32,000 bases of DNA from a bacterium (GTDB taxonomy: Bacteria; UBP7; UBA6624; JBBIMK01), in contig JBBIMK010000003.1 in the NCBI GenBank assembly GCA_037444445.1, positions 65,211 through 97,210 on the forward strand. Reading direction: 5' to 3'. The notes under the pieces are model-generated. The model had not been told where the DNA came from, did not search any database, and was given only the letters and a program-made list of their open reading frames with translations. The position numbers and the translations under genes are program-made. Every line of letters begins with the position of its first letter. The stretch's first letter is position 1. Shown here piece after piece: positions 5,395 through 31,372 of this stretch.

Positions 5395-5465
5395 TGGGGA
5401 GTCGTCTAACGGCAGGACAGTGGACTCTGGATCCATCAATGGAGGTTCGAGTCCTCCCTCCCCAG
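5395..5465 (+). tRNA. tRNA-Gln (anticodon CUG)
   Basis: Hand-folded cloverleaf. 7-bp acceptor stem TGGGGAG/CTCCCCA with the U1:A72 pair characteristic of bacterial tRNA-Gln, and U8. D-stem GTCT/GGAC with loop AACGGCA. Anticodon stem GTGGA/TCCAT with loop CT-CTG-GA. T-arm GGAGG-TTCGAGT-CCTCC. Discriminator G. CCA is not encoded. Confidence 0.9.
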
Positions 5466-7047: not shown

Positions 7048-8246
7048 AACGCTCCCAAATCTTGAAAGAGTTCATCAGCGTTTCTTCTGCTCTTGCCTCC
7101 CTGGTGGAGCGTCGGTCCACTCAACACCCCTTTCATGTGGCATGGCTGTCGCGTCGGATGGGAGAATCCCTGAACCTCTCCAGGAAAAGTCTCAGAAACC
7201 TTCAATATGCTGCCCTTCTGCATGATATTGGTGAGATTGCTATCCCCGACCGAATCCTCGATAAGCCCGGACAACTCACTCTCGCGGAACGCCTGCAAAT
7301 GGAACGGCATGTTCTCATAGGCTACAATGTGGTTTTCAAAATTCCAACGCTGGAAGAGGCAGCCCTTTTCATTCGCTGGCACCACGAGAAAATAGACGGA
7401 ACCGGCTACCCCGATGGGTTAGAAAACGGTGCCATTCCGATAGAAGCATCGGTGCTGTCTCTGGCCGATGTGTTTGAAACACTGACGAGTGACCGCCCCT
7501 TCCGGAAAGCCTTGCCACAAGCAGTAGCCCTTGAAACCATCCAAAAAATGTCTGGCATTGCTTTTCCTCCCCGGGTCGTCTCTGCCTTTCTGAAGGTTTT
7601 CACCGAGCGAAAATCCCCCCCCACAGATGTTCTACTGAACTATGACCAGGAGAGCGAAGAGGATTTGAGTGAGGATGAATTGATTTTTCATGCCTTTGCC
7701 ATTTCCACTGTTCTATCAGAGTTGGTTTCGGAGAGGCATTCTCATCTGAAAAGCCATGCCGTTCGCACTTCTCTCCTGTGTAGCGCTCTGGGGAATGAAC
7801 TGGGTCTATCTCATAATGATTTGTTCACTCTGGAACTGGCCGCCCTCTTACATGAGGTAGGCATGGCGGCTATACCTTCAGAGATTCTGTTATCTCGCCG
7901 TAAGTTGACCCCTGATGAAAGAGAAATGATTCATCGTCATCCTATCTATTCAGAAGAAATTGCCTCACAGTTGTCTTCTTTTCCAGAGGTGGCCACTGTC
8001 ATTCGTAGTCATCATGAGCGCTATGATGGAAAAGGATATCCCGATGGTTTGAAGGGGGAAGAGATTCCCTACCTATCCCGAATTCTTGCCGTGTGCTCTT
8101 CTTTTGAGGCGATGCTTTCGCGTCGCCCTTATCGCCGAGCGATGAGCCCCTCAGCGGCTTTTGAAACGTTCTTATCCAGCCTGGGAAAGCAATTTGACCC
8201 GGGGCTACAGAAAGCCCTGGAAGCTCTCCTCGTTCATCGTGTATAG
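7044..8246 (+). CDS. tandem HD-GYP domain protein (putative c-di-GMP phosphodiesterase)
   Basis: Two modules: LLHDIGEIAIP...HHEKIDGTGYPDGL and LLHEVGMAAIP...HHERYDGKGYPDGL. The GTG start overlaps the cyclase stop as GTGA (7044-7047), with GAGGTGG 5 nt upstream. Confidence 0.85.
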   Translation: MKRSQILKEFISVSSALASLVERRSTQHPFHVAWLSRRMGESLNLSRKSLRNLQYAALLHDIGEIAIPDRILDKPGQLTLAERLQMERHVLIGYNVVFKIPTLEEAALFIRWHHEKIDGTGYPDGLENGAIPIEASVLSLADVFETLTSDRPFRKALPQAVALETIQKMSGIAFPPRVVSAFLKVFTERKSPPTDVLLNYDQESEEDLSEDELIFHAFAISTVLSELVSERHSHLKSHAVRTSLLCSALGNELGLSHNDLFTLELAALLHEVGMAAIPSEILLSRRKLTPDEREMIHRHPIYSEEIASQLSSFPEVATVIRSHHERYDGKGYPDGLKGEEIPYLSRILAVCSSFEAMLSRRPYRRAMSPSAAFETFLSSLGKQFDPGLQKALEALLVHRV

Positions 8247-9075
8247 GTCTTTTGCTCAGGTCGTCATAGATGAAATCGCTCCTCATTATGTGGAATCCAT
8301 TCTCTTTCCTGATCCTCTGGATTGGCGTCTTCCTTATTTTCTAAAGCGGGAAGGATACCAGATCCTCTCCGCCCACCAAAACCATCTTGTTTTTTTGTTC
8401 GCACGAGGATTCGTTGAGAATAATCGGACAAAACTGACCGGCAGTGATAAAAAGCTGTTCCTTACTGCAGAACCGATGAAGGATTTTCCTCCTGTATTCC
8501 GCCTTCCTTTCTTATCTACTTCTCAAATGGGACTTCTGGCCGCCTGGGCAGAACGAATAGATGGAGTGGCGGATGACCTTCAAAGGTCCCTGTTGTGGTG
8601 GGTATTTTATCGTGTGATGTTCTACTGGTATTACCAGCAGGGAAAACCCCTTCTGGCTGTGAAACAAATAGCGGACCATTACATTCGGGAAGCGAATCGG
8701 CTCGTGTTCAATAATGGCCGTGCCAACCTGGCACTCTGGTCTTCTTCCTCCGAGGTTTTCCCTTTATTCCCCGGCGAAATGGTGTGTTTCACCCTGGAGG
8801 AGGGATTTCGGCTTCATCCTGTTCGTAAGGCATTTCAGGCAATTCTCCATCGGACGATGTCAAAATATTATCCTGCTCACCAGCCCGGGGAGTTCATTCC
8901 CGAACGATGGTCTCGGTTTCAGGATGTCCCCGTATGGTGTTTCCACATCACGAGTTCCGTTAGATTTTTGAAGCAGGTAGACAAATCCCTCGGTGAATTC
9001 AAACGAAGAAAAAAAACTATCTCTCTTTACACACCTGAAGATAAGAAAGGCAGTTTTGTAGTTCTGGGGTGGTGA
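8239..9075 (+). CDS. hypothetical protein (no recognisable domain)
   Basis: Frame open from TTG 8161 to TGA 9073-9075. A start at 8161 would overlap the HD-GYP gene by 86 nt. GTG 8239 (8-nt overlap) or GTG 8290 are more likely starts, but none has a good RBS. Aromatic-rich sequence with no motif I recognise. Confidence 0.45.
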   Translation: MYRSFAQVVIDEIAPHYVESILFPDPLDWRLPYFLKREGYQILSAHQNHLVFLFARGFVENNRTKLTGSDKKLFLTAEPMKDFPPVFRLPFLSTSQMGLLAAWAERIDGVADDLQRSLLWWVFYRVMFYWYYQQGKPLLAVKQIADHYIREANRLVFNNGRANLALWSSSSEVFPLFPGEMVCFTLEEGFRLHPVRKAFQAILHRTMSKYYPAHQPGEFIPERWSRFQDVPVWCFHITSSVRFLKQVDKSLGEFKRRKKTISLYTPEDKKGSFVVLGW

Positions 9076-9540
9076 AGAAATATCCTCGGAAAAAGGATTG
9101 CTATTGGATGCGACCATAACGGCTACTGGCTGAAGGAGGAGTTGAAGCGAATGCTGGTGCAGAATGGCTATTCGGTGATGGATGAGGGCACTCACTCTGC
9201 AGAATCTGTGGACTACCCGGATTTTGGTGTGGTGGTGGCTCAGGCTGTTTCTCGGGGCGAGGCAGGTTGCGGGGTGCTCATCTGTGGAACTGGCATTGGA
9301 ATGTCTATGGTCGCCAATCGGGTGAAAGGGGTGCGCGCCGCTCGGTGTTTGGACCTGTATTCGGCTCGGATGGCGCGGCAGGACAATGATGCCAATGTGC
9401 TTTGCCTCGGTGGGCGCCTCCTGGCTCCTGCTCTTGCCTGGGAAATCCTCAAAGTTTTTCTGGAAACCCCTTTTGAGGGTGGACGCCACCTCCGAAGAAT
9501 CCAGAAAATCCATCGGTTAGACCCGCCGGAATCCCCATGA
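9072..9540 (+). CDS. rpiB: ribose-5-phosphate isomerase B (RpiB/LacAB family); the reading frame needs a 1-nt correction, or a non-canonical start, near 9082-9094
   Basis: KRIAIGCDHNGYWLKEELKRML...SVDYPDF...VLICGTGIGMSMVANRVKGVRAA...NVLCLGGR...FEGGRHLRRIQKI is a typical RpiB. The canonical-start ORF (TTG 9142) lacks the conserved N-terminal IAIGCDH segment, which is encoded at 9091-9126. See the finding for start options (GTG 9072 plus A5 run, or ATC 9082). Confidence 0.75.
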
Positions 9541-10235
9541 AATCCCTTGCTCATTCTTCCCGTGAACAGCCCCTTTCCACCTGGCTTCGTCTGCTGGATG
9601 AAGAAATTTCATCCATCGTGTCCCAGTTAAAAGCCGAGAAGGAAATAGACCGAAAGTTATTCTTGTATGAGAGATTATATGACCTGGTGGATGTGAGCCG
9701 ACGCTGCATTAAGGTTTTCCACGAGGTGGAGCGCGCCCCCTTGAAACGAACTCCATATGAGTTGTTATCCCTGATTGAGAAAGCCGTGGCTCAAGCGGAG
9801 AAAAATGAAGACAACACGAAGTTCTCTACAATTCAGAGGGTGCTCAAACAGCTCCTGCCGGATTTTGATACGAAGGATTACTTTCGTGTGAGCAAGTTCT
9901 CAGACCTGTTAAAGCTGGCGGAAAAAGAGGGTCTGGTAAAACTTCTGCCCCGGGTGGCTCCCGAGGAAGCCTATCTGGCTCCTACGCCGGTTCAAACTCA
10001 ACTGCTGGATATCCTTTCTCGGAAGATTTCGCAGGAAAAGAAAAAGGGAAATCTTGTTCTAAAAGTCAGCGAACTCCAGAGCCAATGCAATCGTATCTTC
10101 CACGGAAAGTTGACTGAACGCTTAAAGAAAAGTGGGTTCTCTTCCTTTGAGGAATTGCTCCAGCGCGCCCGGAAACTCGGTAGAATCACCCTCTTTAGTT
10201 TAGGGGATGAATTAGTGGTCTATGGCAGGGATTGA
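9537..10235 (+). CDS. protein with two OST-HTH/LOTUS-like domains
   Basis: Two segments fit the OST-HTH pattern: FSTIQRVLKQLLPDFDTKDYFRVSKFSDLLKLAEKEGLVKL and LKVSELQSQCNRIFHGKLTERLKKSGFSSFEELLQRARKLGRITL. The ATG overlaps the rpiB stop as ATGA. Domain call is by eye only. Confidence 0.5.
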   Translation: MKSLAHSSREQPLSTWLRLLDEEISSIVSQLKAEKEIDRKLFLYERLYDLVDVSRRCIKVFHEVERAPLKRTPYELLSLIEKAVAQAEKNEDNTKFSTIQRVLKQLLPDFDTKDYFRVSKFSDLLKLAEKEGLVKLLPRVAPEEAYLAPTPVQTQLLDILSRKISQEKKKGNLVLKVSELQSQCNRIFHGKLTERLKKSGFSSFEELLQRARKLGRITLFSLGDELVVYGRD

Positions 10236-18009: not shown

Positions 18010-19917
18010 GTGAAGAAGATTTTGAAGGTGTGGATGGTTGTGATAGGTGTGCTGGTAATTTCTGCAGGAACCGAATCTCTCATCCCAGATGATGCGTGGA
18101 GGGCGCTGGACGATGCTTTGCAGTCGCTGAATATGACCCGACAGGACCTGGGCTTTGAGAAGAAGAATGCCCCCAGTATATTTCGCCTTCCCGTGGCAAA
18201 TCTGGCGCTGGATAAACCGTTGGAACTTCCCTTCCTCGCTGATGCTTATTCCCGGAAAATCCGTGAAAGCACTCCACTTGCCCTTATCGGGATAGGTCGG
18301 GAAATCCTGATAGGCGATACAAATGTAAACCTTCTGATGCCGACTTCACCCCAGTTCCCTCGTGAATGGCAAGCAGGAGAGTTGCCTCCGGTTTTGAGAG
18401 AAATCCTGGTTCCGCTGGTTCAGGCCAGGGAAGAATCTGAAAAACTCCTGATGTCTGCCTTTTCCGGTTTAACCCAGCAACAGCAGGAAGCTCTCTTCTA
18501 CACCGCCTCCCGGTTCATCTTTGATGATGAAGAAGAATTCCCACTTGATTTTTATAAAGGAAAGAAGCATCCGGCGGAAATCCAACCGAAAGAGGCGCTG
18601 ACCCTGGTGGAAAAGGTGGATTTTCCACGCATCATTGATGCGGTGCAAGTAATGATGAAGGCAGTGGGAGAGGCAATGAACTCCTTCAAAAGGCTGGACC
18701 TGGATTCCATACCGGCGAGGATTTATGATTCAGAAGTGGGAGGGGCCTCTGTTTTCGTTCAGGAGACGCCGTTTGGTAAGATGGTCATCGGAGGCAACGG
18801 AAAGAACATCTACCGCTGTGGCTGCTGGCTGGTGATAGATTTGGGGGGCGACGATGAATATGAGGGACGCTTAGCGGGTGGGCTGGGTGCCCAAATGCCC
18901 GTCAGCGTTGTGCTGGACCTGGGTGGAAATGACCTCTACCGCTCCGGGGATATTTCCCTCGGTGCGGGATATTTTGGTATCGGAATTCTCTACGATGTGA
19001 GCGGTAATGATGTCTATCGGGGGCATCGGATTACCCTGGGCTCAGGTTTCTTCGGCGCTGGGACGCTGGTAGATGAGGCAGGTGATGACCTCTATGCGGC
19101 AGATGTATTCGCTGAAGGAGCCGGAGGCTTTGGTGTTGGAATTTTGCAGGATTCCGCCGGCGAAGACTTTTATCGTGGAAGCCTCTTCGCCCAGGGGTTC
19201 GGGTTCACTTTAGGAGCAGGTATCCTGTCTGACTCCACCGGAAATGACCTGTATTACGCCGGTGGCAAAATCCTCCACCAACCCCTTTATGCTGATGTCT
19301 ACCGGAGTTTATCTCAGGGCTTCGCCATAGGGATGCGGGATTTGGAAGTGGGGGGTGGCGTGGGCATCCTCTGGGATGGCGTCGGAAATGATGCCTATAT
19401 TGCTCAAGTCTATTGCCAGGGCTCCAGTTACTGGTATTCCCTCGGAATTCTTGTGGATGAGGCAGGAAACGATTCTTACTCCTGCTACATCTACGGACAG
19501 GGGGCTGGTATTCATCTCTCCAGCGGTATCCTCCTGGATAAATCCGGTAATGATGGCTATTATCTCCAGGATGGCGTAGGGCAGGGTGGAGGCCACGACT
19601 GGGCTGTGGGTTTCCTCTACGATATGAAAGGGAACGATTATTACACCGGCGCAGGGCTCAGTCAGGGTAGCGGAAATGCCAATGGTGTAGGCATCCTTTT
19701 AGATTTATCCGGTAATGACGGTTACTCCGGTGTGAAACAGGGAATTCAAGGCGCTGGGAACCCTGCAAGGGATTCCTATAGCATCGGTATTCTTCTGGAC
19801 CTGGGTGGGAAGGATAAGTATTCCGACCAGGGGAAAGATAATTCTATGTGGAGCAGTTCTTCCTGGCCTACTTATGGCGTAGGAATTGACCGAGAAATGG
19901 GAGGGGAGAAAAAGTGA
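18010..19917 (+). CDS. exported protein with 12 copies of a ~26-residue Gly-rich GNDxY repeat (predicted beta-solenoid); function unknown
   Basis: Signal peptide MKKILKVWMVVIGVLVISAGTES. C-terminal half (about nt 18830-19830) carries 12 motifs: GGDDEY, GGNDLY, SGNDVY, AGDDLY, AGEDFY, TGNDLY, VGNDAY, AGNDSY, SGNDGY, KGNDYY, SGNDGY, GGKDKY. Repeat context is L-x-D-x-x-G-N-D-x-Y-x6-Q/L-G-x-G-x4-G-I. Confidence 0.8.
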   Translation: MKKILKVWMVVIGVLVISAGTESLIPDDAWRALDDALQSLNMTRQDLGFEKKNAPSIFRLPVANLALDKPLELPFLADAYSRKIRESTPLALIGIGREILIGDTNVNLLMPTSPQFPREWQAGELPPVLREILVPLVQAREESEKLLMSAFSGLTQQQQEALFYTASRFIFDDEEEFPLDFYKGKKHPAEIQPKEALTLVEKVDFPRIIDAVQVMMKAVGEAMNSFKRLDLDSIPARIYDSEVGGASVFVQETPFGKMVIGGNGKNIYRCGCWLVIDLGGDDEYEGRLAGGLGAQMPVSVVLDLGGNDLYRSGDISLGAGYFGIGILYDVSGNDVYRGHRITLGSGFFGAGTLVDEAGDDLYAADVFAEGAGGFGVGILQDSAGEDFYRGSLFAQGFGFTLGAGILSDSTGNDLYYAGGKILHQPLYADVYRSLSQGFAIGMRDLEVGGGVGILWDGVGNDAYIAQVYCQGSSYWYSLGILVDEAGNDSYSCYIYGQGAGIHLSSGILLDKSGNDGYYLQDGVGQGGGHDWAVGFLYDMKGNDYYTGAGLSQGSGNANGVGILLDLSGNDGYSGVKQGIQGAGNPARDSYSIGILLDLGGKDKYSDQGKDNSMWSSSSWPTYGVGIDREMGGEKK

Positions 19918-24011: not shown

Positions 24012-24956
24012 CTATTCTATACCTCTTTCAGCAAGAGTATCACAGAGGGATTGCGGATTAAATAATTCCTGCAAGAAGACAATATCGGGGTCCAAATCAT
24101 TTTGGACACGCTCTCTAACCTCTTCTTCGTCTGTCTTCCAGCAAAGTTTGTTTTTGTAGCCGTGTTTCAAGCACTTAACCGCCGCATTTCCTACATTGGC
24201 GGTGAGAGTGGTATAAATGGAATCACCACCTCCTACTCCGCCGGTCGCCTCCAGCCCGCTCCGCAGACCTGAAAAACCTGAACTACCAGTTCCCTGTGTA
24301 TTTTGGATGCAGAGACCTTGAGAATAGGACCAGCGCCTACCCTCTCCGCCTATGCAGCTGTAGCCATCCCAGATTCCGCCGGAGGATATGCAAGCGCTCA
24401 TTGCTTCATTCATCTTCACAGCCCCGAACTGAAAGCCTTCTTTCACTGCTAATCCTTGACTCGGGATTGCAGGGTCGTCTATCAGGTCATAGATGAACCC
24501 CTGGGCCAGTCCATCAACTGGAAAATCCCAGAAAATTGGCTCTCTGTGAAAATCCTCCTGCACTACTTTGTACCAGGTAAATAGGTCCGGTTCAGGAGCA
24601 GATTGACTTATTTTCACTCTGTCGTAGGGTGAAATCAGCCCTATACTTGCAGATTCCCTATTGAACTCCTCTGCATCTGAAGAAATGATAATGTAATCAC
24701 TCAGAGGGATGATGTAGGACGGCAGGGGATGAGGGGATTGATTGGCTGGCAGAATAGTGAGTTTGAAGTTTGTGGGATTCTCAACCAAATGAGTGGAGAT
24801 TGCGAGAGTGTGCTGCCCCAGCATAATCTTTCCACCGGAGGAATCCACCACCGCGTAGCCGGTGAGGCTAAGAATGGGCAAGTGGCAGTAGTCATCATCC
24901 GTTTCTTCAGGCGGAGGGCAATTGGTAAAAGGTAGCGATGACGGATTTATCCGCAT
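24012..24956 (-). CDS. C-terminal fragment of a surface lipoprotein gene (unknown domain, lectin-like Cys/Gly-rich region, then the first ~25 residues of an EEP-type nuclease/phosphatase domain)
   Basis: 314-aa ORF with no RBS before its ATG. It overlaps the upstream ORF by 50 nt in the +1 frame. It ends ...VQNDLDPDIVFLQELFNPQ..., which resembles the first motif of the endonuclease/exonuclease/phosphatase fold, then stops. Probably part of one disrupted gene; see findings. Confidence 0.5.
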   Translation of the reverse strand: MRINPSSLPFTNCPPPEETDDDYCHLPILSLTGYAVVDSSGGKIMLGQHTLAISTHLVENPTNFKLTILPANQSPHPLPSYIIPLSDYIIISSDAEEFNRESASIGLISPYDRVKISQSAPEPDLFTWYKVVQEDFHREPIFWDFPVDGLAQGFIYDLIDDPAIPSQGLAVKEGFQFGAVKMNEAMSACISSGGIWDGYSCIGGEGRRWSYSQGLCIQNTQGTGSSGFSGLRSGLEATGGVGGGDSIYTTLTANVGNAAVKCLKHGYKNKLCWKTDEEEVRERVQNDLDPDIVFLQELFNPQSLCDTLAERGIE

Positions 24957-26707: not shown

Positions 26708-26735
26708 TTGCAATCAAAAATAACAGGTGTATAAT
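26708..26735 (+). promoter_or_regulatory. sigma70 promoter TTGCAA-16-TATAAT for the cysM operon
   Basis: TTGCAA at 26708-26713 and TATAAT at 26730-26735, with TG immediately upstream, 41 nt before ATG 26777. Confidence 0.55.
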
Positions 26736-26776: not shown

Positions 26777-27754
26777 ATGAACCCAAAAACCTCCTTCGCG
26801 CCTGGTTTTTCACCGGTGGAGAGAGACTTGATTTCTCTCATCGGAAATACACCCCTTCTGCCCTTTCGGGATGAGGCGCTCTTGCACAACGGGGTGAGTT
26901 TCTATTTGAAGGCGGAGTGGTATAATCCCGGCGGAAGTGTAAAGGACCGCCCCGTTCTCTTCATCCTCAGGGAGGGAGAATCTGCCGGGGAACTCAGGAA
27001 GGGGAAAACAATACTGGATGCGACCTCGGGAAATGGGGGCATCTCTTATGCGTGGATGGGGGGTCGCATGGGGTATCCGGTGAAGTTGTGCATTCCTTCC
27101 AATGCCAGCACAGAACGGATAAAACTCCTTCAGATTCTGGGTGCAGAACTGGTATTCACAGACCCTCTGGAGGGAACGGATGGGGCGAGAAAAGTGGCGG
27201 AAAGCCTGCGTCATGAATCACCCGATGATTTCTTCTATCCCGACCAGTACGGAAATCCAGCCAATCCGCTTTCTCATTACACCACCACAGGCCCAGAAAT
27301 CTGGAATCAAACGGAGAAAAACATCACCCATTTCGTTTGTGGCCTGGGCACCACAGGCACTTTTATGGGGTGCGGGAGGTTTTTGAAACAGGTGAACCCT
27401 GAAATTCGCCTCCTCACTGTGGAGCCTGACACTCCATTTCATGGGCTGGAAGGATTAAAATATCAGGATGCCACCTCGCCCGCTGGATTTTATGACCCCC
27501 TGCTGGCGGATGAACACTGCTATATTCGGACGGAGGATGCTTACGACCTTCTGCGTTATCTCGCCCGCAAACACGGGCTTCTGGTGGGACCCTCCTCCGG
27601 CGCCGCTATCCTCGCCGGTATTCAAACCGCAAAGAAATTAAAAGAAGGAACCATCGTTGTGCTTTGCCCTGATTCCGCTTCCCGATACCTGTCGGAGCGT
27701 TTCTGGCAGGCGCATTTCACGGAAGTTCAACATGCGTTGGATTCCAGTAAATAA
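26777..27754 (+). CDS. cysM: PLP-dependent cysteine synthase, CysM-like (sulfur-carrier/O-phosphoserine type suggested by context)
   Basis: NPGGSVKDRP (PLP lysine), TSGNGGISYA, GLGTTGTFMG and GPSSGAA. Followed by JAMM, CysO-like and MoeZ-like genes, as in the mycobacterial mec-cysO-cysM system. Confidence 0.85.
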   Translation: MNPKTSFAPGFSPVERDLISLIGNTPLLPFRDEALLHNGVSFYLKAEWYNPGGSVKDRPVLFILREGESAGELRKGKTILDATSGNGGISYAWMGGRMGYPVKLCIPSNASTERIKLLQILGAELVFTDPLEGTDGARKVAESLRHESPDDFFYPDQYGNPANPLSHYTTTGPEIWNQTEKNITHFVCGLGTTGTFMGCGRFLKQVNPEIRLLTVEPDTPFHGLEGLKYQDATSPAGFYDPLLADEHCYIRTEDAYDLLRYLARKHGLLVGPSSGAAILAGIQTAKKLKEGTIVVLCPDSASRYLSERFWQAHFTEVQHALDSSK

Positions 27755-27820: not shown

Positions 27821-28270
27821 ATGCTTCGTCTTCCCGTTGAACTTTTAGAGGAAATCTACCGACATGTAGAAGTTACCTATCCGGAAGAAGGTTGTGGATT
27901 TCTGGTGGGGCAGTGGGAAGACGAAGAAGATGTAATGGTTCTTCAGGTTTTACCTGTTTCTAATACACGGGTGGATTCCCGCCATAACCGATATCTCATT
28001 TCTCCGGAGGTATTTTTACAGGTGAACCGGGAGGTGGAGAAACAGTCGCTGGAGATTGTGGGATTTTATCATTCCCACCCGGATGCACCCGCAAAGCCGT
28101 CCGATTTTGACCGAGATTACGCCTGGTTCGGCTATGTGTATATGATTGTGCCTGCCCACAGGGGTAAGAGCGGTATGCCTCAGGTGTGGAAATTAACCGA
28201 GGACCGTTCGTCTTTTTTGCCGGAAAGTCTGATACTATTGGAACGGAGGGATATGGTGTGGCAACGGTGA
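27821..28270 (+). CDS. mec: JAMM/MPN+ zinc metallohydrolase (Mec-like)
   Basis: EEGCGFLVG (catalytic Glu) and GFYHSHPDAPAKPSDFD (H-x-H-x7-S-x2-D JAMM motif). GAAAGGAG RBS. Confidence 0.85.
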   Translation: MLRLPVELLEEIYRHVEVTYPEEGCGFLVGQWEDEEDVMVLQVLPVSNTRVDSRHNRYLISPEVFLQVNREVEKQSLEIVGFYHSHPDAPAKPSDFDRDYAWFGYVYMIVPAHRGKSGMPQVWKLTEDRSSFLPESLILLERRDMVWQR

Positions 28271-29688
28271 AAATCCCTGCTCCTTTGCGCCGTTTCACTC
28301 ATCACCAGAACGACATCCCCATTGATGGAGTCAATGTAAGGGAGGTTCTGAAAAATTTGCGCCAGCAGTTTCCTGTGTTAGAAAAACACCTTTTTACCGA
28401 GGACCAACAACTGCGGAATTTTGTTACTCTATTCTTAAATAACGAGGATATTCGCTCGTTGCAGGGGCTGGACACTCCGGTTAAGGAAGGAGACGAAATT
28501 TCCATCGTTCCAGCGATAGCGGGGGGGATGAGAAAGAATGAAGTCATTCTCACTCCGGAAGAAATCCTGCGTTACTCCCGCCATCTCATTATGCCCGAGG
28601 TGGGAATGGAGGGGCAAAAGAAGTTGAAGTCTGCCCGCATCCTCATCGTAGGGATGGGAGGGCTCGGATGCCCCGTCTCTACCTACCTTACCATGGCAGG
28701 AGTGGGAACCCTCGGCATTCTGGACTTTGATAGGGTGGAACTTTCTAATCTTCAGCGCCAACCCCTATATGTGACTGATGATGTGGGCAAACTCAAGGTG
28801 GAAGTGGCGAAAAAAAGGCTGAATGCTATGAATCCTCATGTGCGTATTCAAGTGCATCCCGTGCAACTTACCTCAGAGAACGCTATGGAGATTTTGCAGG
28901 ATTATGACCTGGTTGTGGATGGAACAGACAATTTTCCCACCCGGTATTTAGTGAACGATGCCTGCGTGCTGTTGAAGAAGCCGTATGTCTATGGGAGCCT
29001 ATTCCGCTTTGAGGGGCAGGTGACCGTCTTCGGAGGGGAAGGAGGTCCCTGCTATCGGTGCTTATATCCGGAGCCGCCACCGCCTGACCTGGTTCCGTCG
29101 TGTGCAGAAGGAGGTGTTCTGGGCGTTCTCCCCGGCTTCGTCGGCGCCTGGCAAGCACTGGAAGCTATGAAACTCATCCTGAATGAAGGGGAAAGCCTCC
29201 GCGGCCGCTTTATCCTCATAGATGCCATTCAGGGGCGAGCTCGCGAATTCAAAATTCATCCCAATCCCCAGTGCCCCGCCTGTGGCAATCACCCCACTAT
29301 CCACCGGCTGATAGATTATGACGAGTTTTGCGGTGCACATCGGGCAGAGCAGGCCATACAACTGGATAAGGATTGGGAGATTACACCGAAGGAATTAAAA
29401 GCCCTTCTGGGCTCTAAAAAAGATGTGGTGATTCTGGATGTCCGGGAGCCAGTAGAATACCAAATCTGCCATCTACCCGGCTCTCGCCTCATTCCTCTGG
29501 GTGAACTTCCTTACCGGCTGGGAGAACTGGACACTTCCGAGCATATCGTGATTCACTGTCACACAGGCTCCAGAAGTGCTCGTGCTGTGCAGTTCCTTCG
29601 CCAGATGGGATTCACCCGGGTAAAAAATCTAAAAGGAGGGATTGATGCCTGGGCAGAGCAGGTGGCACCCTCTATGCCCAGATACTAA
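28258..29688 (+). CDS. CysO/MoaD-like sulfur-carrier (ends ...AIAGG) fused in frame to a MoeZ/MoeB-type E1-like adenylyltransferase with C-terminal rhodanese domain
   Basis: Residues from VKIPAPLRRF to FLNNEDIRSLQGLDTPVKEGDEISIVPAIAGG (nt 28258-28527) resemble M. tuberculosis CysO (VSIPTILR...YVNDEDVRF...GDSVTILPAVAGG). Next comes MRKNEV...LRYSRH...IVGMGGLGCP, CYRC and CPAC zinc motifs, PSCAEGGVLG, and a rhodanese domain with CHTGSRS. GTG 28258 has GGAGGG 7 nt upstream; GTG 28267 overlaps the mec stop as GTGA. The junction is a G7 run (28521-28527). Confidence 0.8.
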   Translation: MATVKIPAPLRRFTHHQNDIPIDGVNVREVLKNLRQQFPVLEKHLFTEDQQLRNFVTLFLNNEDIRSLQGLDTPVKEGDEISIVPAIAGGMRKNEVILTPEEILRYSRHLIMPEVGMEGQKKLKSARILIVGMGGLGCPVSTYLTMAGVGTLGILDFDRVELSNLQRQPLYVTDDVGKLKVEVAKKRLNAMNPHVRIQVHPVQLTSENAMEILQDYDLVVDGTDNFPTRYLVNDACVLLKKPYVYGSLFRFEGQVTVFGGEGGPCYRCLYPEPPPPDLVPSCAEGGVLGVLPGFVGAWQALEAMKLILNEGESLRGRFILIDAIQGRAREFKIHPNPQCPACGNHPTIHRLIDYDEFCGAHRAEQAIQLDKDWEITPKELKALLGSKKDVVILDVREPVEYQICHLPGSRLIPLGELPYRLGELDTSEHIVIHCHTGSRSARAVQFLRQMGFTRVKNLKGGIDAWAEQVAPSMPRY

Positions 29689-29689
29689 A

Positions 29690-30502
29690 ATGAGCATACC
29701 TTTTCCTCATATCAGTATAGAAGAAACCTTGACCCTTTATCCTCATGAGTATCCTGACTCACTGCGTGTGGAGCGGGTGATGCATTCCATCCAGCAAGAT
29801 GGGATATTACGGAATCCGGTCATTGTAACGCCCATCAAAAATGGCTTTGTCCTGCTGGATGGAACCAATCGCCTGGAGGCTTTCCGCCGTCTTTCCATCC
29901 CGTATATTCCAGTTCAAATCGTGTCTACCGCTTCTCCCGATGTTCAGTTGAAGTCGTGGGCACATCAGGTGAGTGATGCGGTGGAAATAGACGAGGAAGT
30001 TCAATCGCTGTTTCAGCAATTTCAGGCAGAGGTTCAGGTGGCAAAGGCCCTTTCATCCTTTACTCCGTGTGAGGAGAAAGATTATCTTTTATCCTACATC
30101 ACCCCCCGCACTTCTTTAACGGTATATCTCAAGGGGCGAGCAGTGAAAAAAGCCGCCCTCCTCAACCACTTTGTCAACTCCCTGCGGAAAGTAGATACCC
30201 TCTACCGATTTAATCCGGAAGATGAGGTAACTCTCCGAAACACCCATCAGTATGCCTATTACATGGTCTTTCGGAAGGACCAGATTGTGGAAATGGCGAA
30301 GAAGCGGGAAAAACTGCCCTGTGGAATTACACGCTTCCAGGTCGCCGGACGAGCCCTTGGCCTGGATGTCCCTCTTTCTGTTCTATCCAGACGGGAAACC
30401 CTGGAATCCAAAAAATCCTACCTGAAACGGTTGCTGGAAGAACGGAAAAAAGCCAGGAAAATCCGCCTCTACTCCGAGCCTGTCTACATCTTCAACGACT
30501 GA
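29690..30502 (+). CDS. ParB/sulfiredoxin-fold protein; candidate free serine kinase (SerK-like)
   Basis: N-terminal NPVIVTPIKNGFVLLDGTNRLEAFRRLSIPYIPVQIV carries the ParB/Srx DGxxR-type motif. The ATG is 1 nt after the moeZ stop. The function is inferred from context only. Confidence 0.6.
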   Translation: MSIPFPHISIEETLTLYPHEYPDSLRVERVMHSIQQDGILRNPVIVTPIKNGFVLLDGTNRLEAFRRLSIPYIPVQIVSTASPDVQLKSWAHQVSDAVEIDEEVQSLFQQFQAEVQVAKALSSFTPCEEKDYLLSYITPRTSLTVYLKGRAVKKAALLNHFVNSLRKVDTLYRFNPEDEVTLRNTHQYAYYMVFRKDQIVEMAKKREKLPCGITRFQVAGRALGLDVPLSVLSRRETLESKKSYLKRLLEERKKARKIRLYSEPVYIFND

Positions 30503-30538: not shown

Positions 30539-31372
30539 TCATTTCGTCTCTCCTCCGTTCACTGGCTTCAGGCGGTAGAAGAAGTTTTTCAATTGTTGGA
30601 GGAGCGGCTCGCCAGTCACAAGGAAGGCATCGTTATGCCCGCCTTTGAGCTCAAAGAATGTTTTAGGCTCCGCAGAAGCCTGATACAGCCTGAACCCGAG
30701 CTCAAAGGGGACCACCTCATCTTTCCGAGCATGGAGAAAAAGTTTGGGCATAGTCAGGTGAGGAACTTTTTTGAGGGAATCGTAGCGGGAGCGTGCAAGG
30801 AGAGAAACGGGCAGGAAAGGGTATGCAATTTTCCCTATCTCAATGATGGAAGGAAAACAGCCTTCACAAATCAGGGCGGCCACCGGAACACGAGTCGCTA
30901 AATCTATAGCAACTCCTCCGCCTAACGAACCACCATAAAGAATCATCCGCCCCGGGGGAATCCCTTTCTGCTGAACCAAATACTCATACATCGTGAGAGC
31001 GTCCACATATAATCCCTTCTCGGAAGGAAACCCCTCGCTTTGTCCATACCCCCGGTAATCAAAGATAAGAGTTTGAAGGTTCAGTTGCTGAAAGACCTGC
31101 AGACGCTTCAGACTATGGCTGATATTTCCCCCGTTACCGTGGAAGAACAGAATCGTCCAGGTCGCAGAAGGATTGGGTAGGAACCAGCCGTGAATCCTGA
31201 CGCCATCTTCCGTCGTGAGGAAAACATCTTCATAAGCCAATCCAATATCAGCAGGCGTGGCTTCCAGCGTCCGTGTGGGAAAATATATCAGATAAGGCTC
31301 AAGAATTTGGAAAAATAACCAGACGCCGAGTAGAACAACCGCAACAATCAGGAATATAAGCAATTTTTTCAT
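30539..31372 (-). CDS. alpha/beta hydrolase, N-terminally membrane-anchored
   Basis: FFHGNGGN (oxyanion HG), nucleophile elbow YGGSLGGGVA (GxSxG), then later Asp (RKDEVVP) and His (GGHND). TM segment LLIFLIVAVVLLGVWLFF. Confidence 0.8.
   Translation of the reverse strand: MKKLLIFLIVAVVLLGVWLFFQILEPYLIYFPTRTLEATPADIGLAYEDVFLTTEDGVRIHGWFLPNPSATWTILFFHGNGGNISHSLKRLQVFQQLNLQTLIFDYRGYGQSEGFPSEKGLYVDALTMYEYLVQQKGIPPGRMILYGGSLGGGVAIDLATRVPVAALICEGCFPSIIEIGKIAYPFLPVSLLARSRYDSLKKVPHLTMPKLFLHARKDEVVPFELGFRLYQASAEPKTFFELKGGHNDAFLVTGEPLLQQLKNFFYRLKPVNGGETK

Follow-up and report, generated by a model that had tools for sequence, protein, structure and literature searches.

Introduction

SbnI of Staphylococcus aureus and S. 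pseudintermedius is an ATP-dependent kinase of free L-serine, which provides O-phospho-L-serine to SbnA for the synthesis of staphyloferrin B (PDB 5UJE, 5UJD and 6NR6), and SerK of Thermococcus kodakarensis (TK0378; PDB 5X0B and others) is an archaeal, ADP-dependent kinase of free serine that takes part in cysteine synthesis and serine assimilation (PMC5120207). In the Desulfurococcales, serK lies beside a phosphoglycerate dehydrogenase homologue, and no clear-cut bacterial homologues of SerK were recognised by Makino et al. (PMC5120207). A 2025 survey of the ParB-CTPase fold named only SerK, SbnI and sulfiredoxin (Srx) as its enzymatic outliers. The present study deals with a gene encoding a protein of 270 amino acids (aa), probably a kinase of the SbnI/SerK type, that closes a CysO-type cysteine synthesis operon in a bacterium of the GTDB lineage UBP7; UBA6624; JBBIMK01. 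The stretch of DNA analysed, referred to below as the window, comprises 32,000 nucleotides of contig JBBIMK010000003.1 (GenBank assembly GCA_037444445.1, positions 65,211 to 97,210 of the forward strand).

The feeding of a beta-replacement enzyme dependent on pyridoxal phosphate (PLP) by a serine kinase is already known, as SerK-CysK in Thermococcus and as SbnI-SbnA in Staphylococcus. In Mycobacterium tuberculosis, O-phosphoserine comes from the SerA/SerC pathway, and the known CysO/CysM systems are thought to draw it from this phosphorylated serine pathway. The mycobacterial CysM forms an aminoacrylate from O-phosphoserine, the thiocarboxylate of CysO generated by MoeZ attacks this intermediate, and cysteine is released by Mec (PMC3227635). 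The original prediction for the window, made from the sequence without database searches, had proposed that a SerK-like enzyme supplies O-phosphoserine to such a system, and had presented the link as new. In the full text that could be searched, no literature was found that connects a serine kinase with the CysO pathway or describes the bacterial family to which the protein belongs. What seems to be new is the combination with the CysO system alone.

Homology and fold of the predicted kinase

The gene in question is the following open reading frame (ORF), with the methods by which it was characterised, including the ratio of nonsynonymous to synonymous substitution rates (dN/dS).

29690..30502, plus strand: putative free L-serine kinase resembling SbnI and SerK, 270 aa (NCBIfam, phmmer, AlphaFold2/Foldseek, family profile, dN/dS)

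We assign its product, with a probability of about 0.68, to the free L-serine kinases of the SbnI/SerK type, as the supplier of O-phosphoserine to a CysM that depends on the CysO thiocarboxylate. The assignment is based on homology, fold, conservation of kinase residues, operon membership and a recurrent pairing of genes.

Among the NCBIfam models, SbnI gave the best match (E 1.3e-26, residues 19-268), followed by SerK, which matched the N-terminal domain (E 5e-9). SbnI also led SerK when the sequences of the PDB were searched with phmmer (7.5e-16 to 1e-14 against 0.01) and with a profile of 43 family members, which aligned with SbnI over its full length (3e-41) and with both domains of SerK (4e-15; profile positions 12-238 of 277 on chain residues 20-240) and of PF0380 (about 1e-15). 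The AlphaFold2 model of the protein, built on 37 sequences, reached a predicted local distance difference test (pLDDT) value of 90.3 and a predicted template modelling (pTM) score of 0.88, and its nine top Foldseek matches in the PDB were all SbnI, SerK or PF0380. SbnI was retrieved with E of 2e-19 to 1e-17, template modelling (TM) scores of 0.71-0.80 and 251-260 aligned columns; SerK and PF0380 followed with E of about 1e-13, TM scores of 0.60-0.74 and about 245 columns, which span both domains. Some nine orders of magnitude in E-value separate these matches from sulfiredoxin, ParB and Noc (E>=2e-4), which were superposed on only about 80 N-terminal residues, whereas the C-terminal domain matched SbnI and SerK only. 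The original prediction had called for this comparison with ParB and sulfiredoxin, which the serine kinases win over both domains. The SerK-like identity that it had suggested is borne out in that both SerK domains align, but the nearer relative is SbnI, and as judged from sequence the protein is closer to this bacterial ATP-dependent enzyme than to the archaeal ADP-dependent SerK.

These results leave little room for a ParB-like orphan (DNA-binding protein, nuclease or CTPase switch) whose position beside the operon is accidental, a reading that we regard as scarcely credible. It could appeal to a sub-threshold Pfam match to ParB_N (E 0.0055, residues 24-78), the only one obtained for the protein, to the weak NCBIfam match to Noc (0.0019) and to the fold of the N-terminal 80 or so residues, which is that of ParB, Noc and sulfiredoxin and includes a GxxRxxA-like motif (G58-x-x-R61-x-x-A64). 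However, the ParB and Noc structures match this portion only (TMq 0.25), and no helix-turn-helix (HTH) or other DNA-binding domain was detected in the protein by Pfam or by structure search. As the original prediction had noted of the HTH and the partition context, the attributes of ParB and Noc are missing: there is no dimerisation domain, no adjacent parA and no parS context. Moreover, the position of the gene, after cysO~moeZ or beside cysM, is kept in relatives down to 30-37% identity. The protein also differs from sulfiredoxin, since the catalytic Cys of the Srx motif GGCHR is replaced by Thr59, and its 270 residues form two domains instead of a single domain of about 100.

Conservation of the kinase residues

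The N-terminal ParB/Srx-fold domain (approximately residues 1-97) bears H19-E20 and D57-G58-T-N-R61, and residues 42-65 form the motif NPVIVTPIKNGFVLLDGTNRLEAF; the C-terminal domain bears G212-I-T-R215-F and R259-x-Y261-x-E263. H19-E20 aligns with H19-E20 of SbnI and H29-E30 of SerK, and D57 with D58 of SbnI; Glu20 and Asp58 are mentioned in PMC9641203, with reference to Verstraete 2018, as needed for SbnI's activity as a kinase. The role of E30 in SerK is supported by the E30A and E30Q mutants, which according to the PDB titles were crystallised as inactive forms. In the C-terminal domain, the T-R-[H/F] motif is kept (G212-I-T214-R215-F216, corresponding to GVTRF in SbnI and TTRH in SerK), while the terminal R-x-Y-x-E is common to the protein and SbnI and absent from SerK.

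When 183 family members were aligned with hmmalign, D57, G58, R61, R221, R259 and Y261 were present in all of them, and H19, E20, R26, R215 and E263 in at least 177 each (E20 in 181). D23, N42, W90, H92, R173, P210, G212 and T/S214 were nearly invariant as well.

This conservation bears on the view that the protein is chiefly a transcriptional regulator of its operon, without significant catalysis, in the manner of the DNA-binding, heme-responsive SbnI. SbnI indeed has two functions, one of them the binding of DNA in the sbn operon (PMC7139808), and the protein has a lysine- and arginine-rich C-terminal helix (approximately residues 238-258) that would suit such a role. A purely regulatory function is nonetheless very unlikely, given the invariance or near-invariance of the kinase residues in the 183 members, the negative Pfam and Foldseek results for DNA-binding domains and the fusion of many members to metabolic enzymes, which regulators do not usually show. 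A regulatory role in addition to catalysis is possible.

Gene position and operon organisation

The surroundings of the kinase gene in the window comprise the following features.

26708..26735, plus strand: promoter-like site TTGCAA-16-TATAAT upstream of cysM, a possible operon promoter; weak, with 10 of 12 positions matching
26777..27754, plus strand: CysM-type PLP-dependent cysteine synthase, 325 aa (Pfam PALP, 1.8e-62)
27821..28270, plus strand: Mec-type JAMM metalloprotease, 149 aa (Pfam Prok-JAB, 9.8e-22, and JAB, 6.5e-9; NCBIfam desampylase, 3.9e-23)
28258..28527, plus strand: CysO-like sulfur-carrier domain of ThiS fold, 90 aa, ending in ...SIVPAIAGG (Pfam ThiS, 2e-14, ending at the Gly-Gly)
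28528..29688, plus strand: MoeZ part of a fusion, with ThiF adenylyltransferase and C-terminal rhodanese (Pfam ThiF, 4.9e-85; Rhodanese, 4.6e-24)
30539-31372, minus strand: convergent alpha/beta-hydrolase gene, following the kinase gene

The core functions, namely a CysM-type PLP enzyme, a JAMM protease, a ThiS-fold carrier with Gly-Gly terminus and a ThiF-rhodanese activator, are encoded together, and no cysE, serA, serB or serC was found within the window. The gene immediately upstream of the kinase gene had been read as moeZ in the original prediction. Its ThiF-rhodanese part is present and matches NCBIfam MoeZ/MoeB at 1e-139 to 1e-145, but the gene as a whole is an in-frame CysO(ThiS)-ThiF-Rhodanese fusion of 476 aa (28258-29688, plus strand), and a 476-aa gene call starting at 28258 is recorded as an exact sequence. 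Proteins with this CysO~MoeZ fusion are common and form more than 100 clusters at about 58% identity, some of them from Acidobacteria and Ignavibacteria. Because the Gly-Gly of the carrier is internal in the fusion, cleavage is presumably needed before the thiocarboxylate can form, and perhaps the adjacent JAMM protease performs it.

The ATG of the kinase gene at 29690 lies one base after the TAA stop of the fusion gene (29686-29688). The ORF, its start, its length and its ParB/Srx-type motif were all found as first described, and so was its place at the operon end, since a convergent minus-strand gene follows. It is probably co-transcribed with cysM, mec and cysO~moeZ, with translational coupling. 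An alternative ATG at 29645, inside the 3' end of moeZ, is preceded at 5 nucleotides by AGGAGG (window 29634-29647), and the equivalent ATG was taken by gene callers in a 98%-identical relative, giving a 285-aa product. Despite its perfect spacing, this start was rejected: in locus L002, whose protein is 86% identical, a TAG ends the corresponding frame after 6 codons and the product begins MSIPFP, so that 29690 is the conserved start. In the rhodanese domain, the AGGAGG codes for KGG. The gene is real and under purifying selection: over its 270 codons, dN/dS is 0.14 in the comparison with L002 and 0.13 in that with L123.

The CysM of the window scored 296 bits against the NCBIfam model cysM (TIGR01138), below the cutoff of 394; its best models were cysM and cysKM, not those of the ThrC/MetM type. 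It is 35% identical to CysM of M. tuberculosis and has Lys228 at the position of Arg220 in that enzyme and Arg210 in that of Escherichia coli. Arg220 was reportedly tied by Agren et al. in 2008 to the O-phosphoserine specificity of the mycobacterial enzyme. As a marker of O-phosphoserine use, however, this position was discarded as uninformative, the residue being Lys in all environmental CysO-operon CysMs examined.

The numbers of promoter-like and terminator sites in the region were not above those in shuffled controls, and Rfam detected no riboswitch or leader in the operon. The sole Rfam match in the window was a tRNA gene (5395-5465, plus strand). Elsewhere, the window carries housekeeping genes, among them those for MutS, AnmK, a GGDEF protein, an HD-domain protein, a Crp-type regulator and AhpC, along with four sizeable ORFs that have no Pfam match at E<=1e-5 (18010-19917, plus; 24012-24956, minus; 8161-9075, plus; 9537-10235, plus).

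Recurrence of the association with the CysO system

Genome loci of the family were collected with a degenerate nucleotide pattern that represents the two family motifs in P-x-G-[IVL]-[TS]-R-[HF]...R-x-Y-x-E and was specific in the window. At least 120 loci were found, and 120 of the 120 matches listed encode a family member. Counts of genomic context refer to 122 loci, that is, the 120 matches listed and two metagenomic relatives, with partners recorded within 3.5 kb.

Co-occurrence with cysM and cysO, proposed as a check in the original prediction, was found at several levels of relatedness. The operon of the window is found again in L123 (98% identical) and, with a fragmentary cysM call, in L002; in L001, the gene of the nearest distinct homologue (P0003, 37% identical) comes directly after a ThiF-Rhodanese gene. 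Four metagenome-assembled genomes (MAGs) show another gene order, cysO-sbnI-like-cysM-mec: L029 (Firmicutes), L110 (Bacillota), L096 and L116 (Sysuimicrobium, partial). The SbnI-like proteins of these MAGs are only about 30% identical to that of the window, their CysO can be aligned with the CysO domain of the window (hPxPLRRhT...DEhSIhPAhAGG), and the arrangement is independent of the order seen in the window operon.

Most co-occurrences with 'Mec' in Chloroflexota were not counted in support of the CysO link, as they belong to a different cluster without CysO or CysM, in which an SbnI-like gene, an ACT-domain gene, a gene for a 120-aa protein, one for a membrane-anchored JAMM protease and a prepilin-peptidase-like gene follow one another. 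A Mec-type JAMM (JAB) domain was also observed in direct fusion with an SbnI-like domain, in a protein of 438 aa (P0150; L129, 6001-7317, plus strand) whose gene adjoins a molybdopterin oxidoreductase cluster and has neither cysM nor cysO in its vicinity.

Family distribution and genomic partners

The family was searched by domain-wise jackhmmer; an iterative search with whole-sequence hidden Markov models (HMMs) drifted through fusion proteins and was discarded. In an exhaustive HMMER search, E<=1e-3 was reached by 1,428 clusters at 50% identity and E<=1e-30 by 116. Nearly all members have 255-295 aa, and most are labelled as hypothetical or as 'ParB N-terminal domain-containing', one IMG entry bearing the SbnI orthology name. 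The listed loci belong mostly to Chloroflexota (Anaerolineae, Chloroflexia), Ignavibacteria and Kapaibacteria, Acidimicrobiia and Acidobacteriota, with a few from Bacillota, Methylomirabilis, Sysuimicrobium and Patescibacteria.

A recognisable partner (SerA, PLP enzyme, Mec, ThiS or ThiF) was present in 54 of the 122 loci. The most direct association is fusion: in 22 loci, a SerA-like 2-hydroxyacid/phosphoglycerate dehydrogenase is joined N-terminally to the SbnI-like domain, either as a two-domain protein of about 580 aa (some 16 loci) or as a triple fusion of about 910-930 aa with a Ser/Thr-dehydratase-like PLP domain, in the order PLP~SerA~SbnI-like (six loci: L044, 2294-5014, minus strand; L025, L045, L082, L095 and L115).

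These fusions are relevant to a role in which the protein works mainly in reverse or reversibly, passing the phosphate of O-phosphoserine to a nucleotide and so making serine in place of SerB. They fit the sequence 3-phosphoglycerate to O-phosphoserine to serine as well as they fit serine catabolism, the unrelated DUF1015 'SerBK' family, to which such a role has been ascribed, offers a precedent, and GapMind 2026 (bioRxiv 10.1101/2024.10.14.618325) argues that SerB, which it notes to be missing in 8% of prototrophs, can be replaced by kinase-fold proteins. For the protein of the window we nevertheless consider this role unlikely: it is probably co-transcribed with a consumer of O-phosphoserine, with which an activity destroying this compound would compete, the reverse reaction is thermodynamically unfavourable (K estimated at about 4e-4; bioRxiv 10.1101/2024.10.14.618325), and SbnI and SerK both act as serine kinases in vivo (PMC5120207; PMC7139808).

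Genes for fold-type-II PLP enzymes were found in 25 of the listed loci, in 24 of them on the same strand within 300 bp or fused; nine are of the cystathionine beta-synthase (CBS) type, seven of the dehydratase type, five of the CysM type and four of the TrpB2 type. The CBS-type genes encode a PLP domain followed by a CBS pair (about 470 aa) and lie directly upstream of SbnI-like genes, as in L011 (2209-3615, minus strand) and eight others including L122 (Methylomirabilis); the L011 protein passes the cystathionine beta-synthase equivalog, and the neighbourhood hints that these enzymes may use O-phosphoserine rather than serine. The TrpB2-type genes, annotated 'TrpB-like PLP enzyme', adjoin SbnI-like genes on the same strand in L068 (5413-6804, plus strand), L036, L083 and L089, and truncated copies are found next to SbnI-like genes in L050 and L047. 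TrpB2 enzymes are O-phosphoserine-dependent tryptophan synthases, as indicated by an entry in the reference list of PMC12790993 (Busch 2014), and these neighbours may form kinase-synthase pairs for tryptophan.

Every recurrent partner thus acts on serine or on activated serine, as expected for a free serine kinase. This also speaks against a small-molecule kinase of the same fold with another substrate, for example L-homoserine, L-threonine or D-serine, which could be invoked on account of the low identity to the characterised kinases (21-24%), the replacement of the His in DGxHR and the existence of a Streptomyces thiocarboxylate pathway that uses O-phosphohomoserine. With SerA-like, CBS, TrpB2, serine dehydratase-like and CysM enzymes as the partners, and a CysM-type rather than a ThrC/MetM-type enzyme in the window, such a substrate is quite unlikely.

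In 24 of the 122 loci (for example L012, 2103-2471, minus strand, and L031, 3394-3756, plus strand), the SbnI-like gene is directly followed, in every case on the same strand, by one for a conserved protein of about 120 aa without Pfam match. In several Chloroflexota its gene lies between those for the ACT-domain protein and the membrane-anchored JAMM protease. It could be a partner of the kinase.

Assessment of the functional assignment

The serine kinase reading put forward in the original prediction is supported by the profile, structure, residue and co-occurrence analyses. Several observations weigh against it. The protein falls far below the NCBIfam equivalog cutoffs for both SbnI (NF033589, 93.5 against 350 bits) and SerK (NF053625, 35.6 against 380 bits), and its identity is only 24% to SbnI and 21% to SerK, the latter by BLAST over the N-terminal domain only, which makes it a distant homologue and not an orthologue of either. 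With regard to the catalytic residues that were to be checked, E20 and D57 are kept, but the His of DGxHR (DGVHR in SbnI, DGHHR in SerK) is replaced by Asn60; at this position the 183 family members have N in 114, T in 45, H in 18 and S in 6. On the side of genomic context, 68 of the 122 listed loci show none of the partner contexts, and the core cysM-mec-cysO~moeZ is present without an SbnI-like gene in L124, L125 and L127, so that the kinase is an accessory, lineage-specific addition and not a required component. Finally, the Lys in place of the mycobacterial Arg220 occurs in CysO-operon CysMs both with and without an SbnI-like neighbour, and so does not distinguish between them.

Proposed cysteine route and its implications

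In the proposed route, sequence and gene context serve to predict which substrate the kinase uses, in which direction it works and which phosphate donor it takes, and also that the CysM of the window uses O-phosphoserine. The kinase would consist of a nucleotide-binding N-terminal domain of ParB/Srx fold and an alpha/beta C-terminal domain, with the active site between them. It would first phosphorylate L-serine with a nucleotide donor, probably ATP as in SbnI, with E20 as the putative catalytic base and D57 and R61 in the predicted phosphoryl-transfer site. CysM would then turn O-phospho-L-serine into the aminoacrylate intermediate, and the C-terminal thiocarboxylate of CysO, made by MoeZ, would attack it; CysO might first be released from MoeZ, in which case Mec may be the enzyme that frees it from the fusion, or might act while fused. 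In the last step, Mec would hydrolyse the CysO-Cys adduct to free cysteine.

If this is correct, the operon would constitute a self-contained route from serine, a nucleoside triphosphate and protein-bound sulfur to cysteine, and cysteine synthesis would be uncoupled from the SerA/SerC flux and from the CysE/O-acetylserine route. Free serine kinases, of which two are characterised (archaeal SerK and staphylococcal SbnI), would extend across many uncultured bacterial phyla, and pathway reconstruction, for example with GapMind, could be improved for cysteine, serine and possibly tryptophan (TrpB2).

A wider proposal, which we advance only tentatively, is that the whole family, which numbers at least 1,400 clusters at 50% identity and has its main distribution in Chloroflexota, Ignavibacteriota, Acidimicrobiia and Acidobacteriota, represents a large and essentially unannotated set of bacterial O-phosphoserine phosphotransferases or free serine kinases. 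It would act as a general module for serine activation, feeding in each lineage its own O-phosphoserine-using PLP enzyme (CysO-dependent CysM, CBS-type or TrpB2-type), and the SerA-fused forms might replace the often-missing SerB. Were this so, the window would hold the first cysteine route in bacteria with a kinase acting on free serine at its beginning and a protein thiocarboxylate at its end.

Comparison with known systems

Among the described enzymes, SbnI resembles the protein of the window in its full-length two-domain fold and in the HE, DGxxR, W-x-H, G-[IV]-T-R-F and R-x-Y-x-E motifs, and in both cases the kinase gene stands next to that of a PLP-dependent beta-replacement enzyme of the CysK/CysM/SbnA family. 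The two differ in sequence, with 24% identity and DGTNR in place of DGVHR, and in their partners, a CysO-thiocarboxylate-dependent cysteine synthase in the window and a siderophore pathway in Staphylococcus. SbnI, in addition, responds to heme and binds DNA; no sign of heme or DNA binding was seen in the protein described here.

SerK likewise aligns over both domains, with E30 at the position of E20 and with the DGxxR and T-R-H/F motifs in common, and the conversion of serine into cysteine through O-phosphoserine (PMC5120207) is the same idea as that proposed for the window. The proximity of serK to a phosphoglycerate dehydrogenase homologue in Desulfurococcales has a parallel in the SerA fusions of the bacterial family. 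SerK, however, is archaeal and uses ADP, and it lacks the SbnI-type C-terminal R-x-Y-x-E as well as Q76, H92 and R173 of the bacterial protein.

With the mec-cysO-cysM/MoeZ system of M. tuberculosis, the window shares all four functions. It departs from this system in the fusion of CysO to MoeZ, in the Lys of its CysM (35% identical) at the Arg220 position, and in the serine kinase gene, as we read it, that is appended to the operon.

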